Source of the DNA: Patescibacteria group bacterium
Lineage (GTDB): Bacteria; Patescibacteriota; Patescibacteriia; Patescibacteriales; UBA12465
Direction: 5' to 3'
NCBI GenBank assembly: GCA_041650715.1
Contig: JBAZKQ010000002.1
Coordinates: 9,568-73,567 of the forward strand
Length of the DNA: 64,000 bases
Part shown: in pieces, positions 3,939-60,780 of the stretch
Numbering within the stretch: position 1 is the stretch's first letter
Layout: each line of letters begins with the position of its first letter
Notes under the pieces: model-generated
Databases searched by the model: none
What the model was told of the DNA's origin: nothing
The model's input: the letters and a program-made list of their open reading frames with translations, nothing else
Program-made: the position numbers and the translations under genes

Positions 3939-3961
3939 AATAGCTTAAACGTTAATCATAC

Positions 3962-3992
3962 AAAAAAAGACCGGGAGTACCGGTCTTTTTTT
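3962..3992. terminator. Bidirectional intrinsic terminator (topA / 4012-4335)
   Basis: agaccgg (3968-3974) pairs with ccggtct (3980-3986). An A-run lies upstream and a T-run downstream. Confidence 0.7.
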
Positions 3993-4011
3993 ATCTTCTT
4001 CGATATGTAAT

Positions 4012-4335
4012 TTATTTCTTTTTTGACTTCGTCTTCGCTTTGCTTTTAGCTTCCTGCGTTTGGCTCGCCGCTCTTTTTTCCTGGACAAACTCCAAGCCCT
4101 TTTTAGCGAGTTGGCTCAGTACCATAAAATAAGCGGAGCTGTGCTTTAATTTATCTTTGGCCATGTTTATAAATTCTTCCGCTTTGGTGACACTGCTCTC
4201 AATTTTTTTACTGATGCGGTTTATGCGCTGGATACTGACGATAAAGTAATAAATTGCCCAGCAGAGAAAAAAAGTGAGGACCGCGATGCTAATCGCCAAT
4301 ATTAAATTTAAAATGTCAGTCGAGCTTGTAAACAT
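4012..4335 (-). CDS. Hypothetical small membrane protein with Lys-rich C-terminus
   Basis: One N-terminal hydrophobic helix. Sits between a terminator and pheT. No recognisable family. Confidence 0.4.
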   Translation of the reverse strand: MFTSSTDILNLILAISIAVLTFFLCWAIYYFIVSIQRINRISKKIESSVTKAEEFINMAKDKLKHSSAYFMVLSQLAKKGLEFVQEKRAASQTQEAKSKAKTKSKKK

Positions 4336-4355
4336 ATTTTTATTTTTAGTTTTTC

Positions 4356-6785
4356 TTAGTCTCTAAGGCGAGCCGCAAACTTTTCACCCAAATGCTTTAC
4401 GAGATTAACGACAATATTTTCCACTTCTTCGGCCAAGAGGGTTCTCTCCGGCGATTGGAATCTTAAGTGATAGGCCAAACTTTTTTCCTCGGCCGCTAAC
4501 TTATTCCCGACATAAACATCAAACAACTCGACTTCTCTGATTAGAGGATTGAATTTTTTTATTTCCTTGGTAAATTCATTATACAATATTTTTTCATTTA
4601 TGACAAAGGCTAAATCCCGAGTTGTCTCCGGATATTTGGCCAGTTCTTTAAAGTGAAGCGCCGATAAGCTGAGCACCATGTCGGCCAGGAGAGAAAAATT
4701 TAATTCAGCGACGGCACTTTGCTTTTTCAGATTGATATTAGCGCCTACCTCTTTACTTATTAAAGACACAATTCCGATTTCTTTCCCGAATACTCTAATT
4801 TTAGCCGTTACCTTTTTATCCGCCCAACCCGGTTTTTCTTCAATCGGTAAAAATTCGCTTACCCCCTCATCATTAAATAAATTATCCAATAAACCACCAA
4901 CGACTCCCTTTAAGCGCTTGAATAAATCTTCTTTATCATCGGCGATAATGATTCCTAATCTTTTTTCTTGATAGGGGAGGGTGCTGTCTCCCGAGGCTTC
5001 TTTTTTAATGCGTCCAGGAGCATCAAAAAATACGCTGCCGAACTCAAAGAACCCCAAAGATTCTGCTTTTGATTGATTAGCTTTGATATTACCGATTAAG
5101 CCGGGGACAAGCGACTGGCGCAACATCGTCTGAATATCGGACAGCGGGTTAGCTAATTTAAGATGCTTAAAGAAATCAATATTTAATTTTTTCAGTTGAT
5201 CGTCGCCGACAAAAGAATAATTATAAACCTCACTTAGAGCGAATTTTAGAACTAAAAAGTCCTTTATACTTCTTTCCAAAAGTCTTTCCCGGTTAATTTC
5301 CGGCAAGCGCAAGGTTTCCAGCGGTAATTGGGACTTAATTTTATCATAACCGTAAATACGCAGCACTTCCTCGGCTAAATCTTCTTTGGCCGCGACATCT
5401 TTTGTGGCGCGCCAAGAGGGAACAGTAACTTTGAGCACCGGCTCTTTAGGATCAGCCACGATGAAACCAAGATTTTCCAAAGTTTTAACTGTAGTCTCGA
5501 CCGGAATTTCCTCGCCAATCTTTTTAGTCAGCCAAGCTAAATCAAGGTCAATCAGCATCGGTTGGTTTTTAGCGTGCTGGATATCAATAAGGGCACTCTC
5601 AATTTTTAATTTAGGGAATAATTCGTGCAAGAGGCTCAGAAATTTAGTTAAGGCTTCCGCGCAGAGATTAGGATCTAAGGCTTTTTCAAAACGCGTTGAG
5701 GCTTCAGTGCGCAGGCCCAAGCGCTGCGAGGTTTTCCTAATCATAACCGCGTTAAAATTGGCCGCTTCCAAAATAATACTTTTTGTACTTGCGCTAATTC
5801 CGCTCGCTTTACCGCCCATTACACCGGCGAGAGCGATCGTTTCTTTCCCGTCGCTAATTACCAAGTCATCTTCATGTAAATTTCTTTCTTTTTCATCAAG
5901 CGTTTCCAGAAATTCGTCTCGGTGCGCCTTGCGCACGACAATTTTTTCAATTTTATCCGCGTCAAAAGCATGTAGGGGCTGGCCGCAATCAAGCATAATA
6001 TAATTAGTCAAATCGACAATATTATTAATCGGTTTTTGATTAACGGCAATTAATCTTTCTTTCAGCCAGGCCGGCGACTCTTTAATCTCCACGCCGCTTA
6101 CCTTAACCGCCATATAGCGCGGGCAGGCGTCCTTATCTTCTACTTTAACTTCTAACTTATTTTCTTTAGCGCTTAAAAATTTTATTTTTTTGTCTAACGG
6201 CTTGCCGTAGGGTTTAAGCATGGTCTGAAAAATAACGCTCATTTCTCGAGCGATGCCATAATGACTAAGCAAATCGGGACGATTAGACATTGATTTATTA
6301 TCTATCTCCAAAACGATATCGTCCGCCTTTAAATATTTAGATAGTGGTTCGCCAATTTTAGCCTTCTCGCTTAAAACCATAATGCCTTCATGATTTTTTC
6401 CGAGACCGAGCTCATCCTCGGCGCAAATCATGCCGCTTGATTTTTCTCCCCTGATTTCCGATTCTTTAATTTCTAAACCATTCGGTAAATTAGCACCGAC
6501 CAAGGCGACCGGGACAAGCTGTCCCACGGCTAAATTAGGCGCACCGCAAACTATGTTTAATTTTTTTGTTTTAATATCAACGACGGCCAGGCGCAAGCGG
6601 TCGGCATTAGGATGTTTTTCAACCGACAAAACGGAACCGACGACGACTTGTGAAAATTGTTGCGCTTGCCCGCTAAACCCCTCGACTTCTACCGTATGGT
6701 TAGTAAGTTCACGGGCAATATCGGCCGCTTTTATTTTCGCGGATAATTTAAGATAGTCGTTTAACCAATTAAGAGATATATACAT
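4356..6785 (-). CDS. pheT: Phenylalanine--tRNA ligase beta subunit
   Basis: 809 aa with an N-terminal OB tRNA-binding domain (VEKHPNADRLRL), B3/4 and B5 regions and a C-terminal FDX-ACB-like end. Lies immediately downstream of pheS. Confidence 0.9.
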   Translation of the reverse strand: MYISLNWLNDYLKLSAKIKAADIARELTNHTVEVEGFSGQAQQFSQVVVGSVLSVEKHPNADRLRLAVVDIKTKKLNIVCGAPNLAVGQLVPVALVGANLPNGLEIKESEIRGEKSSGMICAEDELGLGKNHEGIMVLSEKAKIGEPLSKYLKADDIVLEIDNKSMSNRPDLLSHYGIAREMSVIFQTMLKPYGKPLDKKIKFLSAKENKLEVKVEDKDACPRYMAVKVSGVEIKESPAWLKERLIAVNQKPINNIVDLTNYIMLDCGQPLHAFDADKIEKIVVRKAHRDEFLETLDEKERNLHEDDLVISDGKETIALAGVMGGKASGISASTKSIILEAANFNAVMIRKTSQRLGLRTEASTRFEKALDPNLCAEALTKFLSLLHELFPKLKIESALIDIQHAKNQPMLIDLDLAWLTKKIGEEIPVETTVKTLENLGFIVADPKEPVLKVTVPSWRATKDVAAKEDLAEEVLRIYGYDKIKSQLPLETLRLPEINRERLLERSIKDFLVLKFALSEVYNYSFVGDDQLKKLNIDFFKHLKLANPLSDIQTMLRQSLVPGLIGNIKANQSKAESLGFFEFGSVFFDAPGRIKKEASGDSTLPYQEKRLGIIIADDKEDLFKRLKGVVGGLLDNLFNDEGVSEFLPIEEKPGWADKKVTAKIRVFGKEIGIVSLISKEVGANINLKKQSAVAELNFSLLADMVLSLSALHFKELAKYPETTRDLAFVINEKILYNEFTKEIKKFNPLIREVELFDVYVGNKLAAEEKSLAYHLRFQSPERTLLAEEVENIVVNLVKHLGEKFAARLRD

Positions 6786-56097: not shown

Positions 56098-56483
56098 GGG
56101 GATGCCAGGCATCGACAGTCGGAGCTTTTTCTAAATATTCAAAACGCGCCTAGCTAATCGCGTTAAACTGGCTAAAAAAATACAAATGCCAAAACGGCAA
56201 GAGCATTCACTTGGTTAACTCCGAGCTATGCTCCAGTTATGGCCTAATTAATAAGGCTATAACCATCGGCGGATCGTGAGTCTTCATAACGGTCAACCGG
56301 TGTCATTCAATTGAAGATAGATATTATTTGCGCCTGACGAGTAATATCGAATCAAAATCGGGATCGCTTCAATCGCTTTTGTGTGGTTTTTGATGATTGA
56401 AGTTAAAAAAACGAAATCACTCTATTTTTGTAAATGTATTTAGGAAAACCGATTGGACATGGGTTCAAATCCCATCATCTCCA
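56098..56483 (+). ncRNA. ssrA: tmRNA (SsrA)
   Basis: - The 5' ggggatg pairs with the 3' catctcc, including the G3-U wobble (Ala identity).
- T-arm atggg-ttcaaat-cccat.
- Candidate tag reading frame GCC at 56188 to TAA at 56245-56247, encoding AKTARAFTWLTPSYAPVMA.
- Lies directly after smpB. Confidence 0.85.
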
Positions 56484-56487
56484 CATT

Positions 56488-56571
56488 GCCGCGGTGGCGG
56501 AACTGGTAGACGCGCTGGACTTAAAATCCAGTTGTAGCGATACAGTGCGGGTTCGATTCCCGCCCGCGGCA
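56488..56571 (+). tRNA. tRNA-Leu with anticodon UAA (class II, long variable arm)
   Basis: Acceptor gccgcgg/ccgcggc, anticodon stem ctgga/tccag, loop cttaaaa, variable arm tgta-gcga-taca, T-arm gcggg-ttcgatt-cccgc. Begins 4 nt after the tmRNA. Confidence 0.9.
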
Positions 56572-56594
56572 CTAGTAAGCAAGTTAAACGATAC

Positions 56595-56666
56595 GCGGGT
56601 ATCGTATAGTGGTTATTATGCGACCTTGCCAAGGTCGAGAGACGGGTTCGATTCCCGTTACCCGCT
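56595..56666 (+). tRNA. tRNA-Gly with anticodon GCC
   Basis: Acceptor gcgggta/tacccgc, anticodon stem cgacc/ggtcg, loop ttgccaa, T-arm acggg-ttcgatt-cccgt. Confidence 0.85.
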
Positions 56667-56673
56667 CAATAAC

Positions 56674-56702
56674 AAAAAAGACTCCTCTTGGAGTCTTTTT
56701 TG
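56674..56702 (+). terminator. Intrinsic terminator after the tmRNA/tRNA-Leu/tRNA-Gly cluster
   Basis: agactcc (56679-56685) pairs with ggagtct (56690-56696), followed by a T-run. Confidence 0.8.
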
Positions 56703-56711
56703 TTATTGATA

Positions 56712-56888
56712 GGAAGAAGAACGGGAATCGAACAGGTTGGAAGCGAGATATGAGCCGAGACGGAAGGCGAGGCGAGTAATCGAGCGTCGGACGAATATCT
56801 GGGGGATATTCGGATGCCAACCCTGGACAAGTGAGCGAGGCGCAATTCTGGCGCCGAGTGAGCGCGAGGATGGGGATTAGTAAGCCAG
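56712..56888. other. G+C-rich structured non-coding element B, tRNA-adjacent
   Basis: Visibly G+C-rich in an A+T-rich context.
- 56720-56733 (aacgggaatcgaac) is the exact reverse complement of the tRNA-Gly T-arm at 56646-56659.
- Hairpins: cgaatatc-tgggg-gatattcg (about 56801-56821), ggcgc-aattctg-gcgcc (about 56839-56855), and caggttgg..ccaaccctg.
- Shares AGTGAGCGC and AGCGAGG with element A. Confidence 0.5.
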
Positions 56889-57725: not shown

Positions 57726-58403
57726 ATGAGTGTTGCACTAAAGTTTAAAGAATTTCAAAAAGAATCAAAAAGGGCCCAATATGGGATAGGCCATGAGTTT
57801 GGTCTGATTTTATCATTAATTGATTTTGGGAATGTTGATTATTGGTATGAATTTGATAATTTTAATCGAGATGGAAAAGCCTTAAAGGATAACGAAAAGT
57901 TAAATGTTGACCTAGAATATTTAAAACAATTCTGTGATTTATTTTCTTATAATTCAAAATTTTATTTTGGTTTGGATTCTAAGAAAAAAGAATCAATACA
58001 TTTAATAGCTTCAGCTAGAAATTTTTTTGGTAAAACGAATGTTGTAACAAAAGAAATACAATATATACAACATTATTTAAATGATTTAGAAAAAAAGGAG
58101 AATACTCGCTCGGTAACTTACGATATTCATGGACAATATATAAAAATACCAAAGTGCAATTTTGATGTAGAAATCTGCATTGATGCCATTAGATTGGCTG
58201 ATAAATATGACACCCTATGTTTATTTTCCGGAGACGCTGACTTTACGGCGTTGTTAAGATTTTTAAAATATCAAAAGAAGAAAATAATTTTGATTAAAGG
58301 CGGGCGCGTGCTTCATAGTTTAGTAAAAGCCTCCGATTTAGTCATTAATGCTCAGGAAATAAAAAATGAATTAGTCTTTATAAAGCAAAAATCCCGCCGA
58401 TAG
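57726..58403 (+). CDS. NYN/LabA-like (PIN-related) ribonuclease-domain protein
   Basis: NYN motif order: LIDFGNVDYW, then KCNFDVEICIDAIRLA, then LFSGDADFTALLRFLKYQKKKIILI. Confidence 0.6.
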   Translation: MSVALKFKEFQKESKRAQYGIGHEFGLILSLIDFGNVDYWYEFDNFNRDGKALKDNEKLNVDLEYLKQFCDLFSYNSKFYFGLDSKKKESIHLIASARNFFGKTNVVTKEIQYIQHYLNDLEKKENTRSVTYDIHGQYIKIPKCNFDVEICIDAIRLADKYDTLCLFSGDADFTALLRFLKYQKKKIILIKGGRVLHSLVKASDLVINAQEIKNELVFIKQKSRR

Positions 58404-58568
58404 GCGAGATTTGCGGATCTCGGACCCGAATCCACGGGCAGGGCAATAAAAATTTATTGCAATTAAAATATACAATAATAAATTTGTATTGTCAAGGAAA
58501 TCATAATTTTTTTATCCGCTCAAGATATTGCCGCTTTTAGAATAACAGTCCAAAATTCTATCGGGTAA

Positions 58569-59573
58569 CTACTTATTAGTTTTAATTAACCTTTCAGTAT
58601 TTAGTTTTTTTATATAGGCATCATAGCGTCTGTATGATTTTTCTTTTGCAATTAGGCTCCTTTTTTCTTTTACATTTGTATTACTATCTTTTAATTTTTC
58701 TTTTACAAAACTTCTTTTTCTAAGCGTATTTGCGCCAGCAATGACTTTATTCCTACAAAGCTTTAGGCCTAAATGTTCTACATTTCCTGTCGTATATGAT
58801 GAAATATTTTTTTTGTCGTTTAATAAAAGCGAATGGTTTGTGTCGTAGTTTTTTAAAATACTCTCAATTTTATCATAAACCTCATTCATTAAATCCTCAC
58901 TAACGTTATATGCGCTAATTCCGATGTCATCAACATATATGGTTAATCTTGGGTTATGGCCCTTAAGCATTTTTTTAACAGCCCAGCTAACTCTTAAAAA
59001 TAAATCTAAATTACACAATGTTGCAAGCCTGGTTGATGTGGCAAACCCCCGAGCAATGGTTTTTCTTTTTGAATTACTATTTTTTTGTCCGACTGACACG
59101 CAACACAAATTAGCTATTAATTTAGAAGCTTTTTTGCTACACCCACATTTATTATTTAGAAGGATTTCAATACGTTTGCTGTCATTTTGTTCAAAAAAAC
59201 GTCTAATGTCTGCCCCAAGCTTAATTCTTTTTCGATGGCCACCAAGCAAACTAAGACTTGCCTGTATGTGATTTTTTTTCGAGACTCCGCCAAAAATAAA
59301 ATCGGGTAATATTTTATCAGTGGGGGCTAAAACTTTTTTATTAATTAAATTTAATAATTTACCGAGAGGGTTGCCATATGAGGTTCTAACGTATTTTTCA
59401 TTTTTAAAATCAGATGCTTTTATGTTGTCTCTCCAATATTTGTCATAATTAGCCAAAACGTCATTAATTAAAATTAGCGCCTCACCATGGGTAAAATTAC
59501 TTCCTGATATTCTTTTTGCTAATTCATTCTTGCTTCTGATATTTATATTGGGATAACGATTATTTTCTGGCAT
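58569..59573 (-). CDS. Stand-alone reverse transcriptase (compact, unclassified)
   Basis: - RT motif 1: LGKLLNLINKKVLAP.
- Motif 2: FGGVSKKNHIQAS...LGADIRRFFEQN.
- Motifs 3/4: ARGFATSTRLATLCNLDL.
- Motif 5: YVDD, encoded at 58926-58937 (checked by hand).
- Motifs 6/7: LLLNDKKN...VEHLGLKL.
- Lys-rich helical tail. No fused effector, maturase or endonuclease domain. Confidence 0.8.
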   Translation of the reverse strand: MPENNRYPNINIRSKNELAKRISGSNFTHGEALILINDVLANYDKYWRDNIKASDFKNEKYVRTSYGNPLGKLLNLINKKVLAPTDKILPDFIFGGVSKKNHIQASLSLLGGHRKRIKLGADIRRFFEQNDSKRIEILLNNKCGCSKKASKLIANLCCVSVGQKNSNSKRKTIARGFATSTRLATLCNLDLFLRVSWAVKKMLKGHNPRLTIYVDDIGISAYNVSEDLMNEVYDKIESILKNYDTNHSLLLNDKKNISSYTTGNVEHLGLKLCRNKVIAGANTLRKRSFVKEKLKDSNTNVKEKRSLIAKEKSYRRYDAYIKKLNTERLIKTNK

Positions 59574-59889
59574 ATTTTTTTAAATTTTTCGCTTTTTTGC
59601 TTATTAGTGATATTTGCAATTTTTCACCTAATTTTATCATTTCTTCTTCTATTTTAGTTAAGCTGATTTTACTAATATCAATATTTCCATATAAAAAAGG
59701 GGTGATCGAATTAGGATGCACCTCAAGTTTGTCAGCTAAATTCAATATAAATTTTTTAGATATTTCTTTTTGTCCAGATTCTATCATCGAAACCAATACC
59801 GTAGAAACAGAAAGAGCGTTCGCAAGCTCCTCTTGAGTCAATCCACTATTTTTTCTAATTTCTTTTAATAATTCAGGGAATGATACCAT
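59560..59889 (-). CDS. XRE-family helix-turn-helix protein
   Basis: HTH_3 pattern LKEIRKNSGLTQEELANALSVSTVLVSMIESGQKEIS. Its 3' end overlaps the RT start codon by 14 nt. Confidence 0.8.
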   Translation of the reverse strand: MVSFPELLKEIRKNSGLTQEELANALSVSTVLVSMIESGQKEISKKFILNLADKLEVHPNSITPFLYGNIDISKISLTKIEEEMIKLGEKLQISLISKKAKNLKKYARK

Positions 59890-59896
59890 AAAGAGA

Positions 59897-60052
59897 TTAC
59901 AGGGCGACTATTTTATGAGGTCTACGATGATATGGGCAATCTGCAAAAGTATTTGCATTATTACACATAATCTTCGCGTGTTTTTCATAAATAGCCGCCC
60001 CTAAAATTGAAGGGCACAAATTAAAACTTTTAACTTTGGCTTTCATAATCAT
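59897..60052 (-). CDS. Possible 51-aa Cys/His-containing small ORF, first gene of the RT operon (not in the ORF track)
   Basis: Hand translation gives MIMKAKVKSFNLCPSILGAAIYEKHAKIMCNNANTFADCPYHRRPHKIVAL. The stop lies 7 nt upstream of the HTH ATG. No convincing Shine-Dalgarno sequence. Confidence 0.3.
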   Translation of the reverse strand: MIMKAKVKSFNLCPSILGAAIYEKHAKIMCNNANTFADCPYHRRPHKIVAL

Positions 60053-60454
60053 ATGGGTTTAGTTATTATTTGAATAATAAGGGACCTTTATAAAAATGAT
60101 TACCTAATTTTCTTGTGACCATCATCACCGTGGTACCCTCCAACAATAAACTTTGATGATCAAAAGATTATCAAGCAATCACTGTCAGAACATGAATGTT
60201 AGCTGTATATTATTTATAAATAATTAATATATGCGCTAAAAGTTCTGCGCTAGAGCAAATGTAGCATTAGTCTTATTAGCGCAAAGCATTGAGCATGGCG
60301 TTATAATAAGATGACACATTAATTTACTCTCCCGGAAAAAATCTTTCCTTTTAAGATAGCAAAGAGAAAGAGACAGATATCAAGATGGATATCTAAAATA
60401 ACGGTTAAGCGTAGTCACAAAATTTTAATTTGTTAATATACTATCCTAGTTAAT

Positions 60455-60483
60455 ATATTATACTTTTTGTATAAGTATGTCAA
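60455..60483 (-). promoter_or_regulatory. Near-consensus promoter reading toward the RT operon
   Basis: On the minus strand, TTGACA (60483-60478) is followed either by a 17-nt spacer and TAATAT (60460-60455), or by a 15-nt spacer and TATAAT (60462-60457). Confidence 0.5.
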
Positions 60484-60637
60484 GGGTGTCCATGGGGTGT
60501 GCTCCTGGCAAGCACACCAAACTCCCCAATATTAAAGATTGAGTTAAATTACCCCCTTCCTATATTGCCTCCCCACAAAAAATTGCGCCGCCATTGTGAT
60601 CGAAAAGTGATAAATTTCTTTTTTTGTGATAATAGTC

Positions 60638-60667
60638 AAAAACTACCCTAACCATAAGGTAGTTTTT
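60638..60667. terminator. Symmetric hairpin with flanking A-run and T-run (bidirectional terminator-like)
   Basis: aaaaactacc (60638-60647) pairs with ggtagttttt (60658-60667). The loop is ctaaccataa. Confidence 0.55.
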
Positions 60668-60780
60668 TGTACCCCCAAAACCCTATTTCCTTGAATCTTA
60701 TTAATAGTTGACTAAAATAGAGCTATTATGATATATTTTTTTGTCATACAAATAATGTCGAACCTTTAAAATTTATAGCC

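Follow-up and report, generated by a model that had tools for sequence, protein, structure and literature searches.

What is the G+C-rich stretch that follows the tRNA-Gly gene at this locus, and why does it begin with an inverted copy of part of that gene? The window (the whole stretch of DNA that was analysed, 64,000 nucleotides from a Patescibacteria group bacterium) carries a cluster of tmRNA and tRNA genes, then a palindromic terminator, then the stretch in question, here termed element B. Going by the relatives of its SmpB, the metagenome contig is Falkowbacteria-like. A sequence-only reading had described the same anti-T-arm design for B and for element A, which lies elsewhere in the window.

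An inverted T-arm copy downstream of tRNA-Gly

The features at the left end of element B are as follows:

56098-56667: tmRNA, tRNA-Leu(UAA) and tRNA-Gly(GCC), the cluster directly to the left of element B.
56595-56667, + strand: tRNA-Gly(GCC), called by ARAGORN and the Rfam tRNA model; the module discussed below is lodged in its 3′ part.
56646-56659, + strand: T-loop and 3′ T-stem of tRNA-Gly, GTTCGATTCCCGTT, a sequence repeated in inverted form in element B.
56666-56709, no strand assigned: palindromic hairpin (X), a perfect 20-bp stem with a 4-nt loop and A/T runs on both sides; a bidirectional intrinsic terminator.
56720-56733, + strand: the inverted copy (IR, or anti-T-arm), AACGGGAATCGAAC, the reverse complement of 56646-56659.

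The match between 56720-56733 and the T-arm of tRNA-Gly, claimed to be an exact reverse complement, held at 14 of 14 positions. The IR starts 10 nt after the terminator and 60 nt downstream of the T-arm that it matches. It is unique in the 64 kb even when two mismatches are allowed, the T-arm of tRNA-Leu being the sole exception. The match had been called specific for tRNA-Gly and not tRNA-Leu, which stands in part: 12 of the 14 nucleotides also fit the tRNA-Leu T-arm, but the last two bases and the position favour tRNA-Gly. The stretch is G+C-rich as described (58% over 56720-56880, against 40% for the window), and the word AGTGAGCG, reported to be shared with element A, occurs twice in B and once in A.

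A match of this kind could stem from a decayed convergent tRNA, that is, a pseudo-tRNA on the minus strand, or from chance, given that the T-loop GTTCGAWTCC is common to many tRNAs and that 12/14 nt fit tRNA-Leu. However, by simple arithmetic an exact inverted 13-14-mer within 200 nt is expected only about once per 10^5-10^6 trials, and there are two such exact copies, of 13 nt in A and 14 nt in B, each to its own tRNA; a chance match is therefore rejected, and the earlier estimate that two such matches are very unlikely by chance is sound. A pseudo-tRNA fares no better. Neither ARAGORN nor the Rfam tRNA model calls a tRNA on the minus strand, the 5′ half of the T-stem is missing, which leaves the T-arm incomplete, the conserved fold of element B is not that of a tRNA and lies on the other strand, and real convergent tRNAs make up only 2 of the 122 matches listed in a pattern scan (see below). 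We give almost no credence to either origin. A minus-strand tRNA-like RNA with an acceptor stem was also considered and rejected; it fitted one gut family loosely and did not fit B.

Further copies of element B were looked for, and five were found beyond the window, with the fold conserved, at the tmRNA-tRNA-Leu-tRNA-Gly locus of Patescibacteria relatives (L143, L084, L164, L168 and L177). Together with the window copy they make up the six B-type copies that were compared. The loci of relatives were fetched via neighbouring SmpB genes, and further copies came from a metagenome pattern scan. T-arm and inverted segment correspond as follows in the six copies:

Window, L143, L084 and L177: tRNA-Gly T-arm GTTCGATTCCCGTT; the reverse complement of the inverted segment is identical to it.
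L164: tRNA-Gly T-arm GTTCAATTCCCCTT; reverse complement of the inverted segment, GTTCAATTCCCTT.
L168: tRNA-Gly T-arm GTTCAATTCCCCTT; reverse complement of the inverted segment, GTTCGATTCCCC.

The IR thus covaries with the neighbouring tRNA-Gly T-arm in L164 and L168. That the anti-T-arm follows its neighbouring tRNA is borne out by these two loci, where the T-arm reads GTTCAATTCCCCTT and the IR has changed.

The fold of element B is conserved on the tRNA-sense strand

The consensus of the six copies, obtained from RNAalifold and pair counts, has four helices, P1-P4, with 32 pairs (six helix segments when counted). Its parts in the window are:

56734-56740 with 56817-56824, + strand: helix P1, which encloses P2 and P3 (56734-56824); 4/6 pairs compensatory.
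56743-56786, + strand: domain P2, with a C-GGAA-G tetraloop at 56761-56766; 3/7 pairs compensatory.
56792-56812, + strand: hairpin P3, with the loop TGGGG; 4/6 pairs compensatory.
56825-56836, + strand: unpaired purine-rich linker GGACAAGTGAGC, nearly invariant, with one R position varying (n = 6).
56837-56858, + strand: hairpin P4, with a GGCGC/GCGCC core, at most 9 bp in relatives; 4/8 pairs compensatory.
56859-56878, + strand: 3′ tail of the module, ending in GATT, as placed by the alignment; covariance model R1 matches 56719-56876.

Across the six-copy alignment 94% of the cells at paired positions are paired, and compensatory changes occur at 15 of the 32 pairs. None of 500 shuffles matched the observed pairing values, and control structures in which the partners were slid by 1-3 columns were 31-40% paired. 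The three hairpins that had been read from the single sequence (the 8-bp hairpin, GGCGC/GCGCC and the closing helix) are all present, and compensatory changes keep all three in the five relatives. The folding energy of the single sequence is unremarkable (z = -1.1 on the + strand and 0.1 on the - strand), so the support for the structure comes from the comparison with relatives. On this comparison, the G+C-rich domain of B is evidently under purifying selection. A search of Rfam 15 with elements A and B, at the gathering threshold and at E <= 10, returned no family and only spurious microRNA-like hairpin matches.

The fold of element B reads on the tRNA-sense strand. The consensus energy of the family is -37 kcal/mol on the sense strand and -30 on the antisense strand, and a sense-strand reading gives 10 G-U cells against 2 A-C cells. 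A C-GGRA-G tetraloop is present in 6/6 copies, and the linker GGACRAGTGA is almost invariant while unpaired. A strand call made from the C-RGK-G hairpin alone had pointed to the minus strand, but it was based on terminal, possibly unpaired positions; for B it was overturned by the full-structure counts and the GNRA loops. Across the family, invariant purine-rich linkers are conserved in sequence although unpaired, alongside the strand bias and the covariation. Conserved GNRA tetraloops together with invariant unpaired linkers suggest a functional RNA with a job of its own, and not a mere recombination site.

The module is inserted in the T-loop of tRNA-Gly

Where the module sits can be seen by comparing a filled locus, L177, with an empty one, L179. 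The two are alignable up to the tRNA, after which L177 has 197 extra nt, in which a second tRNA 3′ end is followed by a terminator, the IR and the fold. There follows in L177 the direct repeat ATTCCCGTTACCCGCTCAC and then the terminator that in L179 and L008 directly follows tRNA-Gly; the repeat and this terminator together have 96% aligned identity to the sequence directly after tRNA-Gly in L179. The alignment therefore places the module in the T-loop region, where it supplied a new 3′ end together with a terminator of its own, the old 3′ end staying on beyond it. That the left junction of the inserted module lies in the tRNA T-loop we regard as established by the sequence comparison, the product having the structure of a site-specific insertion. 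Going by the same pair of loci, tRNA-Gly from the T-loop onward is a module-borne copy. By analogy with L177, the terminator at 56666-56709 is probably part of the inserted module and not of the original locus; the hairpin described earlier as the tRNA-Gly terminator is present, but its attribution to the locus would have to be given up.

The tRNA 3′ end displaced by the module survives as a direct repeat, ATTCCCGTTACCCGCTC, which begins after the 3′ tail in L084, L164 and L177 (for example ATTCCCGTTACCCGCTCCA). It is gone in the window, L143 and L168, where unrelated DNA starts within a few bases of the expected repeat start. In the window copy, only GATT at 56875-56878 is left of this distal repeat, followed by unrelated A+T-rich island DNA, and a direct repeat sought at the far end of island B and of island A gave chance-level matches only. 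The family shows what is expected of tRNA-targeting integrative elements, in that the tRNA 3′ end is repeated directly and the copy on the element restores the tRNA. This key context was absent from the sequence-only reading: judged from the aligned loci, the element is an insertion into a tRNA T-loop, and intact copies are flanked by a direct repeat. Because the IR matches T-loop bases that lie beyond the direct repeat, it is matched to the tRNA gene and not solely to the repeat; and because it is intact where the repeat has been lost (window, L143, L168), its partner may be the tRNA itself.

A block of tRNA-Gly 3′ end and terminator cagtccgaaagggctg is 96% identical between L177 (3251-3305) and L179 (3021-3074), the flanks being 75% identical, and it may itself have been delivered by the integrase element of L008 and possibly of L179. 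In L008 a tyrosine integrase gene (4114-5289) converges on tRNA-Gly, and an insert of about 90 nt with two GCGAGG-TAAA-CCTCGC hairpins lies between tRNA-Leu and tRNA-Gly (3945-4040).

The age of element B can be gauged from its divergence. Fold identity and the identity of smpB plus tmRNA are 80% versus 81% for L143 and 68% versus 71% for L084. The terminators of the B copies are unrelated in sequence, although the fold is conserved. The fold is absent from the closer relatives L002, L005 and L008, and L162 retains an IR remnant only. Divergence like that of smpB and tmRNA, combined with absence from closer relatives, indicates that B is old in the clade, has been lost repeatedly and is not island-borne. 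Old vertical inheritance with losses accounts for the pattern of the family no less well than mobility does.

These observations bear on whether B is an inert scar, that is, the arm of an attachment site left when a larger integrative element or prophage underwent an internal deletion, its IR having arisen by template switching at the terminator hairpin (palindrome extension). Such an origin would suit a tRNA 3′ end, a classic integration site, and L008 has its tyrosine integrase right after the same tRNA-Gly. Some families present the tRNA 3′ end, the terminator and the IR as one continuous near-perfect palindrome, and the window copy lacks its direct repeat and adjoins a defence island. The fold, however, shows strong compensatory covariation and is conserved like housekeeping genes while the adjoining terminators diverge completely; the IR follows T-arm changes, the GNRA loops are strand-specific, and unit size and layout recur in many phyla beside ordinary housekeeping genes. 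We consider a scar quite improbable.

Element A follows tRNA-Val with the same design

A second example of the design lies in the same window:

12403-12561, + strand: element A, after tRNA-Val(GAC) and its terminator, with the same architecture as B.

Its positions 12404-12416, just past the palindromic terminator, are the exact reverse complement of the tRNA-Val T-arm at 12327-12339, so the common design attributed to A and B, with an exact anti-T-arm past the terminator of each element's own tRNA, is real. The body of A consists of multiple G+C-rich hairpins, including one with a TAGTG loop at 12462-12476, and at 12552-12560 the 3′ T-stem of tRNA-Val recurs in direct orientation, as AGTCCTGTC, and closes a 10-bp stem with the IR of A. 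What failed was the idea that A and B can be aligned as one family: in a MAFFT alignment they have only a GCGC-YKAGTGA-GCGC hairpin in common, and with the covariance model built for B, A reaches 4 bits (E = 7). From these alignments A and B appear as two members of a design class and not as copies of one element.

Element A and a 136-aa ORF are missing from 18 related loci, where hsp20 is found directly after tRNA-Val, right behind its terminator. The ORF (12771-13181) encodes a predicted membrane protein without a Pfam match and is strain-specific cargo directly after element A. A third tRNA cluster in the window (24258-24500, tRNA-Arg and tRNA-His) has a terminator, and neither an inverted T-arm copy nor a G+C-rich element.

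Element B is very unlikely to be the RNA of the neighbouring retron

To the right of element B lies an island with a reverse transcriptase (RT):

57726-58403, + strand: NYN-domain nuclease gene.
58569-59573, - strand: retron type VI RT (PADLOC RT_VI, E = 6.5e-19).
59560-59889, - strand: Cro/C1 HTH protein (HTH_VI), paired with the RT.
59890-60740: non-coding stretch of 850 nt without long ORFs, upstream of the HTH-RT pair, with hairpins, for example at 60235-60294 and 60638-60667.

The island (57726-59889) has about 30% G+C and is absent from the relative L002. A G+C-richer patch is found near 60480-60520, inside the non-coding stretch. Just after the NYN gene, at 58400-58445, there is a small G+C-rich patch with CCCGAATCCACGGG, a T-arm-like palindrome.

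Retron RNAs have a structure that inverted repeats close, as B does, and a retron type VI RT with a Cro/C1 HTH protein is adjacent, which raises the possibility that B is the non-coding RNA (msr/msd) of this retron. Such an RNA is expected directly upstream of its RT, co-oriented and co-inherited with it, and B differs in all three. It lies 1.7 kb past the RT gene, on the 3′ side of that gene, it folds on the strand opposite to the RT, and its homologues in the five relatives have no RT in the fetched DNA, so that an association with the RT was rejected. Element A is likewise without an RT. The expected place, upstream of the HTH-RT pair, is occupied by the 850-nt non-coding region at 59890-60740, which from its position is likely the site of the retron's own non-coding RNA. 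That B is the retron RNA is hardly credible.

The description of B as the left edge of the RT island holds for its position, and islands do build up at a vestigial tRNA repeat; B is, however, no component of the island, as relatives carry it without RT or NYN. By these comparisons B is older than the neighbouring island and independent of it.

The design is found at many tRNA genes

A scan for the pattern TTCGAWTCCCGT-N45-75-ACGGGAWTCGAA matched 3 viral and at least 119 metagenome loci. Among the 122 matches listed, 97 show the order tRNA, terminator, inverted fragment and two are convergent tRNA pairs, the rest being mostly cut by contig ends. The tRNAs that carry the design among these listed matches are of the Glu, Pro, Gly, His, Thr, Asp and Arg types, at loci of 28-63% G+C. 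On the 3′ side of the IR there are 50-190 nt of hairpins, with a G+C content usually above that of the locus. In 28 of 94 loci, from many lineages, the tRNA 3′ end, from a point inside the T-loop onward, is repeated directly 40-190 nt past the IR. Homologous folds occur at different tRNAs, with the acceptor part of the repeat matching each (tRNA-Glu in L054 and tRNA-Thr in L055). Whole units form tandem arrays in L040, L071, L108 and L122, every unit having its own terminator hairpin; at these loci (for instance L040, 430-1060), two or three complete units, each consisting of a tRNA 3′ end copy, terminator, IR and fold, follow one tRNA gene.

The units contain no coding genes, and their neighbours are ordinary housekeeping genes. 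An integrase-like ORF lies near the units at only 2 of 97 loci (fetched flanks) and none is present in the 64-kb window, the unit itself being too small for a protein; an association with an integrase was rejected on these counts. Homologues of the RT or the NYN protein are absent from every fetched locus. In 23 other loci Rfam gave no match to the elements, only tRNA/tmRNA and spurious microRNA-like hairpins. Compared with phage genomes by BLAST, A and B had no meaningful match, and scans of viral contigs found no A-type palindromes and, for the B-type sequence, ordinary tRNA genes only. Of the roughly 145 tRNAs in the fetched DNA that had not been selected for the design, only the tRNA-Val of the window has an inverted copy. 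The design is widespread, yet not common per tRNA.

The strand preference seen in B recurs in this wider set. Over 35 sequence clusters, GNRA-tetraloop hairpins amount to 6.6 sense versus 0 antisense (cluster-weighted), with 8 clusters favouring sense and 0 antisense; the B family gives a clear signal, the large gut tRNA-Glu family an ambiguous one. Several other families are picked up weakly by the B model, in the right place and on the right strand, with 26-27 bits, part of which comes from the shared IR. A long P3-type hairpin with a C-RGK-G loop (CAGTG, CGGTG or CGGGG) is shared by the G+C-rich part of many loci (for example L053, L054, L066 and L109), and similar hairpins with variant loops are present in B (TGGGG, 56792-56812) and in A (TAGTG, 12462-12476).

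A possible small RNA acting on the tRNA

The sense-strand fold could mean that the module carries the gene of a small RNA whose cellular role is directed at the tRNA. The product would be a sense-strand RNA from the anti-T-arm to the tRNA-3′-end copy and terminator. Acting in trans, or in cis within transcripts that read through, it would pair with the T-arm or with the 3′ half of tRNA-Gly, its precursor or its fragments, and would influence how the tRNA folds, is processed, is kept stable or is repaired. Read-through transcripts may pair with the T-arm, an idea already raised from the window sequence. The sense-strand bias, the GNRA tetraloops and the invariant unpaired linkers agree with such a gene. 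So do an IR that is conserved despite loss of the direct repeat and fits T-loop bases outside it, complementarity that in some families spans the acceptor 3′ strand as well (21 nt in total), the terminator that follows the unit in intact copies, and conservation similar to that of tmRNA and smpB.

Several observations fit this picture less well. No convincing promoter was found, only a weak match on the antisense strand; a strong terminator stands between the tRNA and the element; and pairing with a folded, modified T-arm would require the tRNA to unfold. The direct repeats, the tandem arrays and the wide, patchy distribution are left unexplained by an RNA function alone. Use of the tRNA as a primer was rejected as well, since the complementarity ends short of the tRNA 3′-terminal bases, never reaching these or the CCA, and there is thus no primer-binding site. 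A regulatory RNA gene seems to us somewhat unlikely.

Comparison with known tRNA-targeting and structured elements

Tyrosine-integrase islands, prophages, ICE/IME and CIME-type derivatives target the 3′ ends of tRNA genes, with the crossover in the T-loop. Williams, in 2002, reportedly described where within tRNA genes integrases insert. The modules resemble such elements in that they insert in a tRNA gene and rebuild the tRNA from an element-borne 3′ end, in that the displaced 3′ end forms a direct repeat starting in the T-loop, and in their tandem accretion at the same tRNA. Unlike them, the modules are only about 150-300 nt long, have no integrase or any other gene and mostly lie beside housekeeping genes. 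Described att sites are not known to have an inverted target copy or a conserved single-strand fold, whereas the modules have both.

Integron attC sites have an inverted-core / structured-centre / core layout. Like attC sites and CALIN arrays, the modules form an imperfect palindrome of inverted and direct core around a variable structured centre and are followed by variable DNA from the core onward. They may also be alike in conserving structure over sequence and in strand bias; the B family shows strand bias and covariation, but its unpaired linkers are conserved in sequence, and the fold could be of DNA or of RNA. Arrays of either kind may lack a nearby integrase, and the core ends resemble ...AAC / GTT.... 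The core of the module is a tRNA T-loop and T-stem, and its boxes are at the inner, not the outer, end of the stem; compared with RYYYAAC ... GTTRRRY at the outer base of the attC stem, AATCGAAC / GTTCGATT share the AAC/GTT ends, fail at the fourth position and adjoin the central fold. The primary site is a tRNA gene and not attI, and most units consist of a tRNA 3′ end and terminator with no ORF. Neither IntI/attI nor ORF cassettes accompany the units, whose neighbours are housekeeping genes.

In the CTX phage, single-strand integration of a hairpin att site produces the order site, spacer, inverted site and rest of the element; in the modules the T-arm stands in the place of the site. For the attP of this phage and for Xer-dependent elements, the junction order of hybrid site, short spacer, complete inverted site and rest corresponds exactly to T-arm, terminator, IR and fold. 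The target, however, is a tRNA gene instead of dif, there is no phage genome, and the use of ssDNA is putative here.

The bridge RNA of IS110 and the omega RNA of IscB/TnpB likewise combine a structured non-coding scaffold at the edge of the element with a short target-complementary segment, and the target varies between elements of the same layout (Val versus Gly). The modules differ from them in having no recombinase or nuclease gene in cis, the flanking ORFs being unrelated; in a complementary segment that is an inverted copy about 60 nt from the target and not a flank; and in showing no similarity to them in sequence or in Rfam.

Searches of the full-text literature gave no description of this architecture. 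Small tRNA-gene insertions with an inverted copy of their own T-arm are thus apparently a class that has been undescribed so far. Their insertion logic is that of known tRNA-targeting integrative elements; they stand apart in their gene-less size, in an inverted target copy that changes with the tRNA and in a single-strand fold under selection.

A proposed role in tRNA-targeted recombination

We favour, tentatively and with a little less than even confidence, the reading that a small, non-autonomous integrative module is lodged in the 3′ end of tRNA-Gly and that element B is its non-coding body, with the IR, the fold and the repeat acting in cis as a recognition structure. A site-specific recombinase supplied in trans would insert the module into the T-loop. 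The module restores the tRNA with its replacement 3′ end and supplies its own terminator, after which come the IR (T-loop and 3′ T-stem) and the G+C-rich four-helix domain of about 145 nt. Together with the repeat, the IR and the fold would form a single-stranded structure, as RNA or ssDNA, whose base pairing presents or rebuilds the T-arm core, and this recognition structure would set which tRNA is used. If DNA, it would be comparable to integron attC and the CTX-phage attP hairpin; if transcribed, to guide or bridge RNAs.

A bolder extension, which we think unlikely, is that many lineages carry gene-less mobile modules whose tRNA T-arm target is written as a base-pairing segment on a conserved RNA or ssDNA scaffold, the pairing directing a trans-acting recombinase. 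Such modules would be a programmable, tRNA-targeted counterpart of attC sites and bridge RNAs.

Implications

tRNA genes are the main landing sites of genomic islands, and small non-coding DNA found there is usually dismissed as debris. Here, a unit of about 200 nt comes with strong evidence for a selected single-strand fold and for an inverted target copy that covaries with the tRNA, in a range that extends from low-G+C Patescibacteria contigs to human-gut metagenome contigs of 55-63% G+C. Whatever its role, annotation gains a signature: a tRNA, a palindromic terminator, an inverted T-arm, a G+C-rich fold and a tRNA 3′ repeat. Should the unit be an RNA with the tRNA as its target, tRNA-linked regulators of a new kind would come into view. 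If instead the fold directs recombination, the choice of tRNA target would be specified by nucleic acid, which could explain the build-up of islands such as the retron island at these sites.
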